Under the pieces are notes generated by a model. The model saw only the letters and a list, made by a program, of their open reading frames with translations. It was not told where the DNA came from and did no database searches. A stretch of DNA of 64,000 nt from contig JAHHSQ010000001.1 in NCBI GenBank assembly GCA_020025135.1, positions 179 to 64,178 of the forward strand, written 5' to 3'. Position numbers and translations under genes: made by a program. Shown here one piece after another: positions 13,779 to 64,000 of this stretch. Positions within the stretch are counted from its first letter, which is position 1; each line of letters begins with the position of its first letter. The DNA is from Pectinatus sp. (GTDB lineage: Bacteria; Bacillota; Negativicutes; Selenomonadales; Selenomonadaceae).

Positions 13779-14435
13779 TTGAGATTAAGAAAAAAACCTT
13801 GGATAGAAACAGCGATTAAGGAATATGCCGATTTGGTTTTTCCAAAAGGGACATTTCAACCGGAAGAGCTAGCAGGACATTGGCAGGAAAGGTTTCCACA
13901 AAAGCAAGAATTACACGTAGAATTGGGAACTGGAAAGGGCGATTTTATAACGCAGAATGCGCTTTTGCACCCGGAAATCAACTTTTTGGGGATAGAATTG
14001 CAACAGGATGTCATTTTTTATGCGGTGAAGAAGGCGGCGGAATTAAATTTAAAAAATGTGCAATTTATTGTTTTTGATATTAATAAATTAGAAACACTTT
14101 TGCTGCCAAGAGAAGCGAAACGTTTCTATCTCAATTTTTCTGACCCTTGGCCCAAAAAACGCCATGCCAAACGTCGGTTGACTCATGTCGATTTTTTGAA
14201 AAAATATCAGCACCTTTTGGGAAAAGGAGGAGAAATTTTTTTGAAGACGGACAATAGACCGCTCTTTGATTTCTCTCTGACACAGTTTGCTTTAGTAGAT
14301 TGTGATGTGCGAGCTATTACTAACGATTTACATAATAGTGAATACAATGCCGAAAACATTCAGACGGAATATGAAAGAAAGTTTAGTGGTTTAGGAGAAA
14401 AGATAAATCGCTGTGAGGTTATTTTTCGGTCATGA
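13779..14435 (+). CDS. trmB: tRNA (guanine46-N7)-methyltransferase
   Basis: ELGTGKGDF, NFSDPWPKKRHAKRRL and the TEYERKF motif are typical of TrmB. Confidence 0.9.
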   Translation: MRLRKKPWIETAIKEYADLVFPKGTFQPEELAGHWQERFPQKQELHVELGTGKGDFITQNALLHPEINFLGIELQQDVIFYAVKKAAELNLKNVQFIVFDINKLETLLLPREAKRFYLNFSDPWPKKRHAKRRLTHVDFLKKYQHLLGKGGEIFLKTDNRPLFDFSLTQFALVDCDVRAITNDLHNSEYNAENIQTEYERKFSGLGEKINRCEVIFRS

Positions 14436-15990
14436 TGGCGACGAAGAGGGAAGATAATAAAAAGAAATTTTGGAAAAATGACCGCGAGACTTTGCTGGTG
14501 CTAATGTATGTTTTTATTGATAAAAGCAATTAAATTATTGCCGAAAATAGTAAGTATATAGAGCAATTTATATATCAAAGGGTAAAATCCACCTGAATTG
14601 CTGGAAACTCTTAAAGCTAATCGGACTGAAGCACGGTTTTGAAAGAGAAATTGTTTGACAGTAACGAAAGTAGAAAAAATCGATTAGATGGTAGATGGTT
14701 AAATCCTAAGTACTATAAATAGACAATCAGCAGCCAAACTTCTAAGAGAAGGAGGTTCAACGACTATCTAGAGTAGGTCCGAGTGGGCCGAAGTGGGTGG
14801 CTCTTCTGATACAGAAGATGAAGATATAGTCTGTGCTCATGGGAAATCATGAGAAGTTTATTAGAACTACACTAAATTAACGCCTTGGTGTGAACATATT
14901 TTGCAGTGCTATTGGCTCTTTGAACATATTTAGCTCCAGCTTTGTCACCGCTGATTTAGATTTTCATAATCCGTATTACTTTCTCATTCGGCATTTTATC
15001 GTCGTATTGATTGGTACGATTGGTTTTTTTGTCGGCAAGAGGGTTAATTATCAGATTTGGCGCGATAAGATTGTATATATATATTTCTTGACATTGTTGC
15101 TCCTTTTGTTGGTAGTAGTACACGGCGTTACTATCAATGGAGCGAAGCGCTGGATAAATTTGATTTGGTTTCAGTTACAACCATCAGAGTTGGTAAAGAT
15201 AGTGGGAGTTATTCTTACGAGTAGTTATATCAGTGCTTGCGCTAAGATGCACCGGGACATTTCACTTTTTAATAAAAACATTGTTGCGGTCGGTGTTTTA
15301 GCATTGCTGGTTTTAGAACAACCGGATTTGGGTACTAGTATGATTATTATTGGTGTTCCAATTATCATGTATATTGTGGCTGGTATCGACCAAAAGACGA
15401 TAACGATTTTATTAATTGGAACGCTATTAGCACTGGTTTTGCTTGTTTGGGCGAAACCATATCGCTGGGACAGAATTATGATTTGGTATGACCCGTGGGC
15501 TAGGGCGCAGGGAGATGGTTATCAAACGGTACAGTCCATAATTGCCATCGGTTCAGGCGGTTTTTGGGGCATGGGTATCGGTAAAGGGGTGGCTAAATAT
15601 GCCTATTTACCAGAGGCTCATACCGATTTTGCTTTTGCAATTTTCTCACAGGAAATGGGTATGATTGGCGTCGTTTGTATTTTTATCTTGTACATGATAT
15701 TTTACTTTTATGCTTGGCGCGTGGCGATAAAAGCTAGGGATGTTTATGGTCGGTTACTCGGTTTTGGCATAGTTGCTTTGTTAGTTAGCCAAACCTTAAT
15801 CAATTTGGCAATGGTCATAGGATTGTTGCCGGTAGTCGGAGTGCCATTACCATTTATCAGTTATGGGGGGACAGCATTGCTTGTAAATATGTTTATGCTA
15901 GGCATTTTACAGAATATTAGCTTGGTCACAGATAAATATCCTTTGAAATTAGTGCCTAAAGAGGGAAAAACATTCGGCCGTAGTGGATGA
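14432..15990 (+). CDS. FtsW/RodA/SpoVE-family (SEDS) protein, split by one group I intron
   Basis: join(14432..14517,14907..15990). Exon 1 encodes M(M)ATKREDNKKKFWKNDRETLLVLMYVF plus 2 nt. The spliced junction ...LLVLMYVF(I)AIGSLNIFSSSFV reconstitutes TM1 with the same spacing I recall for B. subtilis SpoVE (LLLVIITLLLLTIGLIMVYSASAV). Exon 2 carries the rest of the SEDS fold (QPSELVK, PDLGT, LPEAHTDFAF, PFISYGG). Confidence 0.8.
14518..14906 (+). ncRNA. Group I intron (subgroup IA-like, ORF-less), copy A in the ftsW-like gene
   Basis: 5' exon ends gtttttat|. Guide sequence GTAAG is at 14550-14554, followed by an 8-bp P2 hairpin with a GCAA loop. Core motifs: attgctgg (14597), aatcagcagcc, ggttcaacgactat (14754-14767), gatatagtctg (14823-14833). 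P3 is ccacct/gggtgg. P9 has a GAAA loop. The intron ends ...ttttgcag|. An alternative in-frame 3' splice site lies at 14903. Confidence 0.85.
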
Positions 15991-29378: not shown

Positions 29379-32035
29379 TGGGTAATATACAAGTGGTTGG
29401 TCTTGGGCCAGCTGGAGAAAAGTTTATTAATCTGCATACTTGGCATATTTTAAACGATGCTGAACAAATATGCTTGCGGACCAAAATGCATCCAGCTGTA
29501 GAAGCCTTGGAAAAGAAAAATATAAATTTTATCAATTATCGGTAAGTTCAACGGGAAACCGCTGAATAGAGGTTATTATACCCAACTAAGAAATTGAATT
29601 GCTGAAAAGTCGTAAAGCCGATTAAACTAAAACATAATTTTGAAAAAGAAATAGGTGTGAAGGTGCTGAAAGGAGAAAAAATTAATCGGATAATATCTGG
29701 TGTGAATCGGGATATAAAAAATCGAAAATCAGCAGCCAAGCTCCAAAGAGGAGCAGGTTCAACGACTATTCCTCGTGAGGGAAGTAGGTATAAGCGTATC
29801 GAAGTGATTTCGCCCTAACAGGAGATGCTGAGGGAGAAGAGATAGTCTGTGCTTGTCGGAAACGACAAGGTGTCTATTATTGAGACCGCATAGATTTAGC
29901 GAAGCTATGTGAACACCACAGAAGTTATGATGATTTTTATCAAAATGGTTTATCTTTTGACGATGTCTACGAAAGAATTGTCACTGATTTATTAGTTAGG
30001 GCTAGCGTTAAAGATGTCGTATATGTAGTTCCAGGCAGTCCTATGGTTGCCGAAAGAACAGTGCCTATGTTATTAAAGCGGGCTGCTAGCGAGAATATTA
30101 AAGTAGAAGTAGTTCCAGCGATGAGTTTTTTGGAATTACTCTATGTAACTCTTCAAGTAGACCCAATTCAAGGTCTTTTAATTACAGATGCCTTTGCCTT
30201 ACAGGAAAAAGTATTGGATTTTTCTTTTGGCACAGTGATAACGCAATTATACGACAAGCATATGGCTTCAGAAGTTAAATTGACTCTGATGGATTATTTG
30301 CCAGATGATTATGAAGTGAGTGTTGTCTATCATCTAGGTATGTCAGATGAAAAGGTGACAAGCTTGCCACTTTATGAATTGGATAGAATTGAGAAGATAG
30401 ACTATTTGACGAGTTTATATGTCAAACCATATCAACAGGAAACGCAAACTTTTTCCATTAATCCATTGGTAGAAATTGTCAAAACTTTGCGTTCTCCAGG
30501 TGGATGTCCTTGGGATATACTGCAAACACATCGCTCTTTGAGAAATAATCTCATCGAAGAAACTTATTGATATTTGGTAAGCGTATCGAGAAATCGGTAT
30601 GAAAAATAAGAAATCGAAATGCTGGAACACCGCAAAGCTGATTAAACCACAACATAATCTCGAAAGATTTAGGTGTGAAGGTAGCGAAAGCAGAAAAAAT
30701 TAATCAGATGGTAGATGGCGTAAGCCTAAAATACCGTAAACCGGCAATCAGCAGCCAAGCTCTAAAAGGAGAAGGTTCAACGACTATTCCCCTAAAAGGA
30801 AGTAGGTGCGAGGGTACCGAAGTGGTTTCATCCCACAGGTAGAGCTGAGGGAAAAGAGATAGTCTGTGCTTTTGGGAAACTAAGAGAGGTTCTCTTTGAG
30901 AACTGTTTCAATTTAGCGAATTGAAATGAACAGCTTTATTAAAGTCAGGAAGTATTAGAAGCGATAGATAAAGAAGATGCGAATTTACTGTGTGAAGAAC
31001 TAGGCGATTTATTATTACAGATAGTTTTTCATGCTCGCATGGCAGAAGAAAGTAAATTGTTTTCTATGCAAGAAGTAATAGAGGGCATTACAAATAAATT
31101 GGTTTATAGGCATCCACATGTCTTTGGTGATGTTTCCGTGCGCGATGCGGGAGAAGTGCTTTTGAATTGGGAAAAATTAAAGCGAGCGGAGAAGAAGGAT
31201 AGAAAATACCTTTTAGATGGAATACCAAAAGATTTACCCGCTCTTTTAACGGCGGATAAACTGCAGTCTAAAGCAGCAAAGGTCGGCTTTGATTTTGCCA
31301 ATGTAGAAGCTGCTAAAGATAAAATATTAGAAGAATTACAAGAAACCCTAGAAGCTATTAAATTAGGAGAAGAGGAAAAAATAGAGGAAGAAATGGGCGA
31401 TTTGCTCTTTTCTGTCGTCAATTTCGCTCGTTTAAAGCACATAAATCCAGAAATTGCCTTATTAAAAAGCGATGCTGTTCGTTACTTGGACAGCTAGTGC
31501 GATTTATAGTAAGCATATCGGGAAACTGGTATGTGGCGTTTAGGAGCCGGCACAAAGAAATTGAATTGCTGGAAAGATGTAAAGCTAATTAAACCACAAC
31601 GCAATATTGAAGAAGTGTAGGCGTGACGGTGGCGAAAGCAGAAAAAATTAATTAGATGGTATATGGTTAAAACCTAAGTGCTAGAAAATTGTCAATCAGC
31701 AGCCAAGCTCTGAAGAGGAGCAGGTTCAACGACTATTTCCCGATGGGAAAGTAGGTACAAGCGTACTGAAGTTGTTTCGCCCTAACGGATAATGCCGAGG
31801 GAAAAGAGATAGTCTATGCTCACATGAAAGTGCGAGAAGTTTGTAAAAACTGTATTAAACTAGCGATTTAATACGAATAAAAACCGATATGGTAACAGTA
31901 GAAGCAAATAAAAAATTTCGCAAACGCTTTACCTTTATTGAAAGAGAATTAAAAAAATCTCAAATTGAGTGGTCCAAAGCGAATGCAGAAATGTTAGAGG
32001 ATTTATGGCAAAAGGCTAAACGAATGGAAGGATAA
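29378..32035 (+). CDS. yabN: YabN-type fusion protein (tetrapyrrole-methylase-like domain plus MazG NTP pyrophosphohydrolase domain), split by three group I introns
   Basis: join(29378..29532,29922..30567,30949..31462,31899..32035). Junctions: EKKNINF(I)SYDDFYQ; SLRNNLIEETY|EVLEAIDKEDANLLCEELGD (compare B. subtilis YabN ..MIEECYELLEAIDEED..); NPEIAL(L)EANKKFRKRFTFIE (compare ..EPEEALTMTNDKFRRRFSYIE..). These align without gaps to YabN as I recall it. The ATG overlaps the mfd stop (gTGATG). Confidence 0.85.
29533..29921 (+). ncRNA. Group I intron, copy C1 (yabN intron 1)
   Basis: 5' exon ends aattttat|. GTAAG at 29542-29546, and its TAA is the in-frame stop. P2 is ttcaacgg-GAAA-ccgctgaa. P3 is gaaat/atttc. 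P5a is ccgatta/taatcgg. P9 is cttgtcg-GAAA-cgacaag. The intron ends ...caccacag|. Confidence 0.85.
30568..30948 (+). ncRNA. Group I intron, copy C2 (yabN intron 2)
   Basis: 5' exon ends aaacttat|, then an immediate TGA. GTAAG at 30577-30581 pairs with cttat (U.G at the splice site). P2 is cgtatcga-GAAA-tcggtatg. P5a is ctgatta/taatcag. An in-frame TAA 9 nt upstream of exon 3 forces the 3' splice site to ...aaagtcag| (30948). Confidence 0.9.
31463..31898 (+). ncRNA. Group I intron, copy C3 (yabN intron 3)
   Basis: 5' exon ends attgccttat|. The P1 loop is 46 nt. GTAAG at 31509-31513. P2 is catatcgg-GAAA-ctggtatg. P5a is ctaatta/taattag. P7.2 is ggtac-aagc-gtact. The intron ends ...ggtaacag|. 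Confidence 0.85.
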
Positions 32036-32739: not shown

Positions 32740-34351
32740 TTGTTAAACGTAGTTATAACAGGTGGAACCAGTGGCATAGGTTTGGCTACTGCAAAATTGT
32801 ATTTAGAAAAGGGAGCAAATGTCTATGCTGTGGCGCGTGATGTCGGGAAATATCAAGATATTCAGGCAGAATTACACGCAGAAAATTATCATTTTGTGCA
32901 GGCTGATATAAGAAATGTAGTTGATTGTCAGCGCGCTTGTATGGAAATTGCTAACAAAGGCAAAGTGATAGATATATTGGTCAATTCAGCAGGCGTTTAT
33001 GGCGAACGGGCCATTGGTGATACTGACGAAGAATTTTTTCAAACTATTTTGGATACTAATATAAAAGGCATGTATTTTATTAAATCGCCTGTGGCGAAAT
33101 GGTAAGCCTGTCGAGAAATTGGCAGAGCATGAAAAAGGAAATTGAATTGCTGGAATACCGTAAAGCCATTTGTACCACAACACAATCTCGGAAGAGATAG
33201 ATGTGAAGGTGACGAAAGTAGAAAAAAACAAATTGGATGATGCAAGGTTAAATCCTAAACATTTTGAAATCGGCAATCAGCAGCCAAGCTCTAAAAGGAG
33301 CAGGTTCAACGACTATTTCCTCAAAGGGAAGTAGACGCAAGCGCGTCGAAGCGGTTTCGCCCTAACAGATAATGCTGAGGGAAATGAGATAGTCTGTACT
33401 CATGAGAAAGCATGAGAAGTTCATCGGAGAACTGCATGGAAGTAGCGATTTCATGTGAAAAATAATAATTAGGTGTAAGTATGCATTGCCTTTACTAAAA
33501 AAGGGGCGCAATAAGGCGATTGTCAATATTTCTTCCGATGCCGGAATAAATGGCAATTATTTTTGTACGGCATATTGCGCTAGCAAGGGAGCGGTAACGG
33601 TTTTTACGAAGGCGCTTTCTTTAGAGTTGGCCCTAGATAAGATAAGAGTGAATTGTCTTTGCCCTGGTGATATCCGTACGCCCATGACAGAAGAGCAGTG
33701 GACAGACGATAACAGCGAGGCTGAGATGAGCTCTTTTTATCCCTTGGGGCGCATTGGAACAGCGGAGGAAGTGGCTAATGCCATTTATTTTTTAGCTTCA
33801 GAAAAAGCCAGCTTTATTAAAAATTATTGCCACGTCGTTTCTTAAAATCTAGAGAGAGAAGCGGTTAATTCAAAGAGGCAATTAATCTGTTTAGTAAGCA
33901 TATTGGGTAACTAGTGTGCATAGTATGTAATTTTACATATAATAAAGAAATTGAATTGCTGGAAAGGCGTAAAGCTGATTAAACTACAACGTGATGGTGA
34001 AATAAACATGGACGTGAAGGTAGCGAAAGCAAAAAAAATTAATCAGATGACATACGGTTAAATCCTAAGTGTCAGTTTATCGCTAATCAGCAGCGAAGCC
34101 CTGAAAAAGGGAACGTTCAACGACTATTCCTCCTGAGGGAAGTAGGCTAGAAGCGATAGCTAGCCGAAGTGATTTCGCCCAAACGGACAATGCCGTGGGA
34201 AAAGAGATAGTCTGTGCTCGTGAAAAATCACGAGGTGTTCGAAATAGAACAGCGGAATAGTAGCGCATTTCCGTGAACAAATTCTCCAGATGGGAGAGTC
34301 AGAACTGGCAGTGTAATCAGTATAGATGGTGGATTGACAGCTCATTCTTAA
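32740..34351 (+). CDS. Short-chain dehydrogenase/reductase (SDR), split by two group I introns
   Basis: join(32740..33080,33473..33817,34303..34351). Has TGGTSGIG, NSAG, and Y..ASK (YCASKGA). Junctions: TNIKGMYF(M)CKYALPLLKKGRNKAIVNISS and LASEKASF(I)TGSVISIDGGLTAHS. Both reproduce standard SDR spacing. Confidence 0.8.
33081..33472 (+). ncRNA. Group I intron, copy D1 (SDR intron 1)
   Basis: 5' exon ends gtattttat|. GTAAG at 33102-33106, and its TAA is in frame. P2 is ctgtcga-GAAA-ttggcag. P3 is ggaaat/gtttc. P7.2 is gacgc-aagc-gcgtc. The 3' end is ...ataattag| (33472). This is TAG rather than CAG, chosen from SDR spacing. Confidence 0.8.
33818..34302 (+). ncRNA. Group I intron, copy D2 (SDR intron 2)
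   Basis: 5' exon ends cagctttat|. The P1 loop is 76 nt and contains its own hairpin (aattattgcc...ggcaattaat). GTAAG at 33894-33898. P2 is gcatattgg-GTAA-ctagtgtgc. P7.2 is enlarged (ggctag...ctagcc). The intron ends ...gagagtcag|. An earlier CAG at 34287-34289 would be out of frame. Confidence 0.85.
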
Positions 34352-39672: not shown

Positions 39673-40702
39673 ATGAGAAGCTTACCGCGTCCTCAATTAT
39701 TAGTAGATGGATATAATGTTATTAATTGTTGGCCGGGTCTTTTAGATAGAGATTTAGAATATTCCAGAGATAAACTCATTCACATCCTGCGGGAATATGG
39801 AGCATATGAAAATTATGATATTACGATTGTTTTTGATTGAAATTATCGTATGAGAATATACATGCGGTAATAATTCCAGTCAGTATGTTTAGAGATAAGC
39901 ATATAAAGATTGCTGATAAAGGCATCAACACTGTTTTAACTGCTGGAAACCCCTAAAGGTATTTGAACCACAACATAAACATGCAAAAAGGTTAAATGTG
40001 AAGGTGACGAAAGTAGAAAAAATCAGATACATGGCATATGGTTAAATCCTAAGTGCTTGAAATGGGTAATCAGCAACTAAGCTCTGAATAGGAGAAAGCT
40101 CAACGACTATTCCTCTTGAGGGAAGTACCTGACAAGCGATAGGTTAGGGATATGGACAGGCCTGAACAGATTAGGTTGCAGGATAAGATATAGTCTGTGC
40201 TCAATGGAAACACTGAGATGTTCCAGAGGGAACTGCATGGGTATAGCGAGCTGATGTGAACAGAATTATCGTTGTACAGAGTAGAAATGGAAATATAAAT
40301 ATCTGATACGCACTCTGTTGGTTATTTTAACGAGAAATACAGGCTTTATACACGAAATCTTGTCGTAGTACGGAATATCATGATAAACATTTTGCGATAA
40401 TTTATACCAAAGAAAAAGAAACGGCAGACAGTTATATTGAACGTTTGGCATACTATTTTTCTCATGAAGGAAAAGAAGTTTTTGTCGTCACTTCGGACGG
40501 AGCAGAACAAAATACTATTTTGGGAGCTGGCGCTTATCGCATCACAGTGAGGGAATTACAAATGGCAGTAAAAAATGCCAAAAAAAAGATGCGCAAGCAA
40601 TACATTCACAAGGTATCTGTTCCGAAGGGAAGAAATGAATTGGCGGATTATTTACAGGCTGATGTTTTGGAAAAATTGGAGGAGTTGCGTAAGAAAAAGT
40701 GA
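39673..40702 (+). CDS. yacP: NYN-domain ribonuclease YacP/Rae1, split by one group I intron
   Basis: join(39673..39837,40343..40702). The spliced sequence ...LLVDGYNVINCWP...YENYDITIVFD|ALYTKSCRSTEYHDKHFAIIYTKEKETADSYIERL...VVTSDGAEQ aligns along its length with B. subtilis YacP as I recall it (..VIVVFDAHLVKG...VIFTKENETADERIEKL..VATSDYTEQ). It follows rlmB, as in Bacillus. Confidence 0.8.
39838..40342 (+). ncRNA. Group I intron, copy E (yacP), divergent member with a retargeted guide sequence
   Basis: 5' exon ends gtttttgat|, then an immediate TGA. The guide sequence is GTCAG (39879-39883), complementary to exon ttgat with U.G at the splice site. P2 is tatgttta-GAGA-taagcata. P3 is ctgtt/aacag. 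P5a is gtatttga/tcagatac. Core motifs: actgctgg, aatcagcaac, gctcaacgactat, gatatagtctg. An ~80-nt tail follows P9.2. An in-frame TAA at 40328-40330 forces the 3' splice site to ...aaatacag| (40342). Confidence 0.8.
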
Positions 40703-63510: not shown

Positions 63511-64000
63511 ATGTTAACTATGGATTTTCACCATATCAGTGTCTTGAAAAATGAGACATTGACAGGCTTGAATATCATTCCGGAAGGGGTCTATGTAGAC
63601 TGTACTTTAGGAGGAGCTGGACATTCAGCAGGAATTGCTGAAAAATTGAGCGAAACAGGCTGTTTGATTGGTATTGATAGAGATGAAGATGCTTTGCAAG
63701 CAGCCAAAGAGCGTTTGCAAAAATATACTTGTCAAATAAAATTAATTCACAGTAATTTTAAGGATTTGGCGACGGTCTTAGCGACAGAAAATATTGGGGC
63801 GGTAGATGGAATTCTCTTTGATTTAGGAGTTTCTTCCTATCAATTGGATACCGAAGAAAGAGGCTTTTCTTACATGAGCAATGCTCCACTAGATATGCGA
63901 ATGGACCGCAGTGAAGAGGGCTTAGATGCCTATGACATTATCAATACATATTCTCAACAAGATTTGGAACGGATTTTTCGCGATTATGGCGAAGAACGTT
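63511..64000 (+). CDS. rsmH: 16S rRNA (cytosine1402-N4)-methyltransferase RsmH (3' end lies outside the window)
   Basis: My translation gives (MLT)[39 protein letters not shown]...[21 protein letters not shown]...PLDMRMD, which is canonical MraW/RsmH. It is not in the ORF track because it is truncated by the window edge. Confidence 0.9.

Follow-up and report, generated by a model that had tools for sequence, protein, structure and literature searches.

A SEDS gene of the FtsW/RodA/SpoVE type in a Pectinatus-related genome is interrupted, in the middle of its first hydrophobic helix, by a group I intron that carries no open reading frame (ORF), and ten further members of the same intron family lie nearby. 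The gene was found in a 64,000-nucleotide stretch of DNA (contig JAHHSQ010000001.1 of assembly GCA_020025135.1), referred to below as the window. Considering all the evidence, we think it quite probable that the element is an ORF-less IA2 intron related to IStrons, the splicing of which would restore the SEDS gene. An earlier note, written from the sequence of this stretch, had proposed a group I intron at this place, and the Rfam model Intron_gpI (RF00028) bears this out, its entire length (1-253) matching positions 14526-14853 of the + strand with 72.6 bits (E = 1.7e-16) against a gathering score of 50 bits. A chance match is excluded because of this E-value and because the ten paralogous copies show covarying structure.

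An intron splits the first hydrophobic helix of a SEDS gene

The SEDS gene starts with an ATG at 14432 that overlaps the stop codon of trmB (shared ATGA, 4 nt). Exon 1 (14432..14517, + strand) has the 86 nt given in the earlier note, made up of 28 codons and 2 nt in a frame that stays open to T14517; it encodes the peptide KKKFWKNDRETLLVLMYVF, with which the N-termini of homologues align and which carries the conserved KKKFW.ND.E motif in frame. The intron (14518-14906, + strand, 389 nt) contains no ORF and lies in codon 29, in phase 2, and exon 2 (14907..15990, + strand) ends with the stop codon TGA at 15988-15990. When the two exons are joined, they form a coding sequence of 1,170 nt without stop or frameshift that specifies a 389-aa SEDS protein. 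The predicted spliced RNA would read ...GTTTTTAT joined to TGCTATTGG (junction 14517/14907), giving MMATKREDNKKKFWKNDRETLLVLMYVF-I-AIGSLNIFSSSF across the junction, i.e. ...LMYVF-I-AIGSLNIF.... No gap is needed to align this protein with the 59 best homologues, from the N-terminus through the first hydrophobic helix (TM1); the junction proposed previously, gtttttat|...ttttgcag|, is thereby supported exactly, and TM1 is interrupted as had been suggested. Moreover, the spacing from KKKFW.ND.E to G(T/S)(I/L)N(I/V)FS(A/S)SF is identical to that of the 59 homologues and is also kept in a syntenic Pectinatus orthologue, a match for which the earlier note had pointed to B. subtilis SpoVE.

Other junctions were considered and rejected. 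The intron cannot end with the Rfam match at 14853, since all three frames contain stops before 14890 (at 14854-14889), and the 3' splice site must therefore lie downstream of that match. A 5' splice site after T14511, suggested by a GTTTTT/AAAAGC hairpin, would cost two residues relative to all 59 homologues and would not use the guide pairing that is conserved in the intron family. Placing the 3' splice site after G14903 would depart from the CAG| rule of the family and would either add one residue (VFISAIG), if combined with the family 5' site, or put a serine at an always-hydrophobic position, if combined with T14514.

The spliced protein has the features of an intact family member. PF01098 (FTSW_RODA_SPOVE) covers residues 21-368, corresponding to profile positions 4-352 of 356 (E = 1e-97), and the closest solved structure is that of Pseudomonas aeruginosa FtsW (8BH1/8P1U; E about 1e-57), to which the PEAHTDF motif of the catalytic region can be aligned. 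In addition, 118 of the 142 near-invariant columns (at least 95% conserved among homologues) are retained, and the changes in the remainder are mostly conservative.

RecA places the organism beside Pectinatus (85-89% identity; Selenomonadaceae, Negativicutes), and Pectinatus frisingensis shares the gene order UDG-TrmB-SEDS-AdoMetDC-RpoD-DnaG-M20 peptidase, with AdoMetDC, RpoD and DnaG on the other strand of its locus. Its SEDS gene shows the same 4-nt overlap with trmB and is uninterrupted, the insertion site reading CTC AT|A ATT. Because this syntenic orthologue has an empty site, the intron is an insertion in the present lineage. A degenerate exon-1 pattern, searched against metagenomes for intron-less or intron-bearing alleles, gave no matches.

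The intron has an intact and covarying ribozyme core

All structural elements described here lie on the + strand. The 5' strand of P1, TTTAT (14513..14517), is formed by the end of exon 1 and pairs with the internal guide GTAAG (14550..14554), the conserved start of the family core, which places a U.G wobble (T14517.G14550) at the 5' splice site after T14517. The P1 loop (14518..14549) varies among the copies, in which this region measures 9 to 76 nt, and holds a small GCAAT/ATTGC hairpin (14526-14541) as well as an in-frame TAA (14531-14533), five codons into the intron, which would release ribosomes reading through from exon 1 before they reach the ribozyme core. The core itself, P2 to P9, is covered by the Rfam match (14526..14853) and comprises P2 (14555-62/14567-74), P3 (14589-94/14795-800), P4 (14599-604/14727-32), P6 (14733-56), P7 (14760-66/14827-32), P7.2 (14776-89), P8 (14802-18) and P9 (14836-53). 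P7.1 and P7.2 are both present and covarying in the family, which is an IA2 feature; the SEDS copy has P7.2, and its P7.1 is reduced to TCTAGA (14767..14772) in place of the 4-bp hairpin of the other copies. Overall, 95 of the 98 consensus pairs are retained, P1 and P7 are intact, and the Rfam score is the second-best of the eleven introns. Downstream of the core, a 3' extension (14855..14896) formed by the hairpins P9.1 and P9.2 and the sequence GTGAACA is conserved and covarying in all eleven copies. It is followed by the 10-nt tail TATTTTGCAG (14897..14906), ending in the terminal G (omega-G), G14906, after which lies the 3' splice site that restores the gapless alignment to the homologues.

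The alignment of the eleven copies supports this fold. Standard pairs fill 96.2% of the pair cells, compared with 37-42% when the partners are slid by one to three columns, and 58 of the 98 pairs have changed in both partners, which none of 500 shuffles equalled. The order of the helices (P1, P2, P3, P4, P5, P6, P7, P7.1, P7.2, P3', P8, P7', P9, P9.1, P9.2) corresponds, as far as can be judged from the predicted pairings, to the layout of subgroup IA. P7 (ACGACTA/TAGTCT) is invariant among the copies, and P1 is paired, with U.G at the splice site, in all eleven. It is formed by an exon end (T/C)TTAT and a guide GTAAG or GTAAA in every copy except i39879, in which the exon end TTGAT (39833-39837) and the guide GTCAG (39879-39883) represent a double compensatory change that matches the target and guide of the Clostridioides difficile IStron.

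Based on these features, we propose that the SEDS gene would be transcribed together with trmB and that the exon end UUUAU and the guide GUAAG would form P1 in the transcript. An external guanosine bound in P7 would then cut after U14517, and the freed exon would attack after the terminal G14906, thereby joining the exons and allowing synthesis of the full 389-aa protein, whereas ribosomes on unspliced RNA would halt at the TAA at 14531-14533. The intact core and the intact exons both suggest that the RNA would splice in the cell.

Two further observations concern the same region. The hexamer AAAATA (14544-14549), just 5' of the guide, is fully complementary to the start of the tail, TATTTT (14897-14902), and not to exon 2; the match may have arisen by chance, the sequence being AT-rich, or may reflect an alternative pairing like P10. 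A consensus scan marked the P9 hairpin and the adjoining AAGTTTATTA (14836-14862) as terminator-like, and a promoter and terminator scan of the region gave nothing above the shuffled expectation.

Eleven related introns occupy five genes of the window

The window contains eleven group I introns according to Rfam, which amounts to roughly one every 6 kb. All of them lie on the + strand and in sense orientation inside five protein-coding genes; a nhmmer search with a profile built from the eleven found no further, partial or antisense copies in the window. Besides the SEDS intron, four interrupt an acyltransferase gene (Acyl_transf_3; 21869-22273, 22336-22746, 22802-23188 and 23290-23673), the highest number in a single gene, three a YabN-like gene with TP-methylase and MazG domains (29533-29921, 30568-30948 and 31463-31898), two an SDR gene (33081-33472 and 33818-34302) and one a YacP/NYN gene (39838-40342). 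Reading frames and guide pairing served to derive the junctions of these copies, with uncertainty over the 3' sites of i21859 and i23290; the 5' sites were partly picked by complementarity but are fixed independently by reading frames and homologues. Conceptual splicing of the ten copies yields continuous, near-full-length Pfam domains in all four genes: Acyl_transf_3 at positions 6-315 of 326, TP_methylase at 3-211 of 212 together with MazG, adh_short_C2 at 6-236 of 236 and NYN_YacP at 1-166 of 166.

Pairwise identity among the eleven copies ranges from 60 to 82%, and they are old or of mixed origin. The nearest to the SEDS copy are i23290 (77%) and i22791 (74%). The sister copies end in ACAG (six), TCAG (two), TTAG (one) and, uncertainly, TATG (one), giving a CAG terminus in at least eight of the eleven. 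GC skew is positive across the window (1-64000), which makes the + strand the leading strand, and no introns were found in the approximately 25 kb of minus-strand genes of the window. The location of all copies in leading-strand genes, although it concerns five host genes only, is what would be expected of IS200/IS605-type elements, which insert into the template of the lagging strand.

The intron family is related to group A IStrons

Group A IStrons are IA2 introns fused to modules of IS200/IS605 insertion sequences (IS), which insert after TTGAT, ATTAT or TTTAT and have the terminus TCAG, and both ORF-less IStron derivatives and IStron-related ORF-less introns of Fusobacterium have been described (Tourasse et al. 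2014, PMC4227781). The present family is homologous to the intron part of these elements. A blastn search of plasmids with the SEDS intron returned elements of Enterococcus faecium and C. difficile that are followed by annotated tnpA/tnpB or tnpB, and positions 16-405 of the family profile (nhmmer) match the intron part of these E. faecium and C. difficile IStrons (255 and 291 bits; L111 and L112). The match extends through GTGAACA, after which the IStrons continue with the IS genes, the right-end (RE) hairpin and ...TCAG|. In the window copies, the tail that runs from GTGAACA to the terminal NAG (1 to 80 nt) is the only segment of freely variable length, and it is located exactly where IStrons hold tnpA/tnpB. 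Two long tails may possibly keep remnants of the IS module: that of i39879 (40263-40342) contains an inverted-repeat stem, ACAGAGT...ACTCTGT, and that of i33894 (34280-34302) has the small hairpin CTCC-AGAT-GGGAG and then AGTCAG, an arrangement reminiscent of IStron right ends. Furthermore, the exon end TTTAT of the SEDS copy is one of the group A targets, and the NCAG ends of the copies are close to the published TCAG terminus. The small hairpin in the P1 loop of the SEDS copy (14526-14541) does not resemble the GTGACTTTAGTCAT palindromes found in L111 and L112.

Comparison with known systems further defines the element. Like the SEDS intron, the group A IStrons CdISt1 of C. difficile and EfISt1 of E. 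faecium have the homologous intron part, a T-rich target, the U.G in P1 and an insertion site inside protein-coding genes; unlike them, the SEDS intron lacks tnpA, tnpB and omega-RNA, with 10 nt in place of 1.4-1.7 kb, and is probably no longer mobile by itself. In organisation, the intron closely resembles the ORF-less IA2 introns of Fusobacterium (F. periodonticum and Fusobacterium sp. oral taxon 370 F0437), which are related to the group A element FnISt1 (PMC4227781). The F0437 intron (L026) matches the family profile over its full length (253 bits) and, like the Pectinatus intron, has a T-rich pentanucleotide target, a guide (GTCAA, compared with GTAAG here) and no ORF; it also shares P9.1-P9.2 followed by GTGAACA, a short tail and ACAG| (TTGAT| ... 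GTGAACA aaaACAG|). The Fusobacterium introns differ in belonging to another phylum, in the host gene and in the target (TTGAT versus TTTAT), and there is no report from Fusobacterium genomes of many copies crowded into neighbouring housekeeping genes.

A precedent for the loss of the ORF module with retention of the splicing sequences, followed by vertical inheritance, is the ORF-less BcISt1 of emetic Bacillus cereus. It belongs to group B, however, in which the IS module is of the IS607 type, the targets end in GG, splicing occurs after G rather than U, and the inverted repeats form long AU-rich stems. The dsrA 'MITEtron' of Candidatus Thiomargarita nelsonii (Flood et al. 2016, PMC4853749) is likewise an ORF-less IA2 intron in a gene of core metabolism, on a chromosome rich in mobile elements; it differs in its gammaproteobacterial host and in a hairpin in P9 resembling a miniature inverted-repeat transposable element, and the likeness is drawn from its description only. 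Finally, IA2 introns of phages (Twort-like phages of Staphylococcus, C. botulinum c-st) are similar in the core (blastn, 66-76% over 170-320 nt), but they reside in phage genes and often carry homing endonucleases, whereas the SEDS intron lies in a chromosomal housekeeping gene and has no endonuclease.

Origin of the intron and alternative explanations

A number of observations weigh against a splicing intron of IStron descent. With regard to descent, a tblastn search with the proteins of L111 and L112 found no TnpA/TnpB homologues in the window; the SEDS copy has no tnpA/tnpB, with only 10 nt between GTGAACA and omega-G, and no RE hairpin, for which this tail is too short; and its 3' end is GCAG, compared with TCAG in IStrons. 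Given the lack of an RE hairpin, of tnpA/tnpB and of a transposase in the window, the case for IStron ancestry rests on homology and position. With regard to function, the SEDS copy alone of the eleven has lost the P7.1 hairpin, which could weaken folding (the P7.1 insert usually measures 11-15 nt among about 135 family members, and 6 nt is rare), P10 pairing with exon 2 amounts to only about 2 bp, and the nearest relatives of the SEDS protein are just 46-51% identical, compared with 85-89% for RecA.

Alternatively, the introns might belong to a free-standing IA2 family that was never associated with an IS module, spread by reverse splicing at sites complementary to its guide (YTTAT) or by phages, and gave rise to IStrons. 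We regard this as possible, albeit unlikely. ORF-less relatives of these introns occur widely across Firmicutes, Fusobacteria and phages, the window has no transposase, neither left-end nor right-end palindromes are present in the SEDS copy, and the target is the exact complement of the guide. On the other hand, a family without such a history would hardly be expected to vary in length at precisely the position of tnpA/tnpB or to have tails with the inverted-repeat stem of i39879 and the hairpin and AGTCAG of i33894. Its targets, TTTAT and TTGAT, are moreover those of IS605-type elements, and the confinement of all copies to leading-strand genes points, weakly with five genes, in the same direction. 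Tail position, sister-copy remnants and targets thus favour descent from IStrons, while the direction of change between IStron and intron is not settled. We infer that the element derives from an IStron that lost its tnpA/tnpB/RE module; alternatively, its mobilisation could have occurred in trans, or through reverse splicing into sites of the YTTAT type.

Another possibility is a dead intron, inactivated by the loss of P7.1, in a decaying SEDS pseudogene, with other SEDS genes performing its function. The loss of P7.1, seen in this copy alone, lends it some weight, the divergence of the SEDS protein would agree with it, and other SEDS genes probably exist. No second SEDS gene was found within the window, but at least two distinct SEDS proteins of P. 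frisingensis, in two clusters, are among the homologue matches, and an RsmH/MraW-like N-terminus, identified by eye only, starts in the window at 63511-63999. The rsmH gene is usually the first of the dcw cell-division cluster, the normal home of the canonical ftsW, and since it lies at the end of the window, the canonical ftsW is probably located just beyond. A dead intron nevertheless seems improbable to us: a decaying gene would not be expected to keep 1,170 nt of coding sequence free of stops and frameshifts, the KKKFW.ND.E motif in frame in exon 1, PEAHTDF and the great majority of the conserved columns, nor a decaying ribozyme nearly all of its pairs with P1 and P7 intact.

The earlier note had further suggested that the intron acts as a regulatory checkpoint, retained to tie SEDS synthesis to GTP, Mg2+ or the growth state. 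Regulated bacterial group I introns do exist, among them the temperature-dependent introns reported from flagellin genes and the c-di-GMP-gated ribozyme of C. difficile; the expression of any gene with a self-splicing intron depends on folding and guanosine, and the copies have preserved their structure despite their age (60-82% identity). Yet selection for intact host genes already accounts for this conservation, members of the family also interrupt four neighbouring genes of unrelated function (acyltransferase, YabN/MazG-type, SDR and YacP/NYN), the syntenic orthologue works without an intron, and no aptamer or other RNA family besides Intron_gpI adjoins the intron (Rfam at E <= 1, 14380-14980). 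The suggestion therefore lacks specific backing, and we rate a checkpoint role as quite improbable. The pattern is instead that of a selfish element tolerated because of splicing, as indicated by its presence in unrelated genes, its homology to IStron introns, the intron-free orthologue and the lack of an adjoining sensor, and the SEDS intron would now be a fixed, immobile passenger rather than a regulator.

Least likely of all, and in our view hardly credible, is a functional N-terminally truncated protein translated from the GTG at 14890. The frame is open from there and this 366-aa form is the one deposited in NCBI, but the GTG lies within the GTGAACA motif (14890-14896) common to all eleven introns, no Shine-Dalgarno-like sequence was seen upstream of it, half of TM1 would be missing and the segment encoded by exon 1 is part of the alignment with almost every one of the 59 best homologues. 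The listed 366-aa ORF (14890-15990) is thus an artefact, as had been recognised before, and because the NCBI/Logan protein on record (P0001) is this same ORF with its start inside the intron, the public annotation omits exon 1. More generally, gene prediction that takes no account of group I introns in bacteria will get the SEDS gene wrong, together with no fewer than four further genes of the window.

Density and distribution of the introns

The kind of element described here is already known; it is the local density, eleven introns in 64 kb, that stands out. For comparison, eight IStrons and three free introns are reported for the whole genome of C. difficile 630, and we found no report in the literature of introns in Pectinatus or Selenomonadaceae, nor of such a density there. 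We tentatively raise the possibility, which for now we consider rather unlikely, that the window samples a Pectinatus-related genome whose core genes carry fixed, IStron-derived introns without ORFs in organelle-like numbers. If so, its intron burden would have no described counterpart on any bacterial chromosome, and it would offer a natural system in which to ask how transcription-coupled translation coexists with splicing. Should the density hold across the genome, ribozyme folding would be required for the synthesis of hundreds of housekeeping proteins, a peptidoglycan polymerase among them, and the organism would serve well as a model of how costly introns are to bacteria and how they are tolerated. 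The copies in the window indicate that introns of the IStron type persist as bare ribozymes in conserved chromosomal genes long after loss of the transposase, and the eleven diverged sequences, including one variant without P7.1, provide a natural covariation set for the IA2/IStron ribozyme.

Among the matches listed, GTDB representative genomes contribute more than 109 stretches with the core motif of the family, and many of these are full-length ORF-less copies. The hosts among these matches include Selenomonadaceae, Lachnospiraceae, Erysipelotrichaceae, Oscillospiraceae, Enterococcus, Fusobacterium, Leptotrichia and Epulonipiscium. Profile matches that end early were considered as candidates for ORF-bearing IStrons and rejected, the ORFs being, by eye, of the phage terminase/portal type or zinc-finger endonuclease-like instead. 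In four stretches (L035, L059, L069 and L092), a related core lies in genes that resemble, again by eye, those for phage terminase or portal proteins. Three others, from the Clostridia metagenome-assembled genome (MAG) Lapin-010 bin8 (L039), Cytobacillus sp. FJAT-54145 (L054) and the Bacilli MAG RGIG9223 (L070), contain six to eight related cores within 2-8 kb, some of them with zinc-finger endonuclease-like ORFs between the intron cores.

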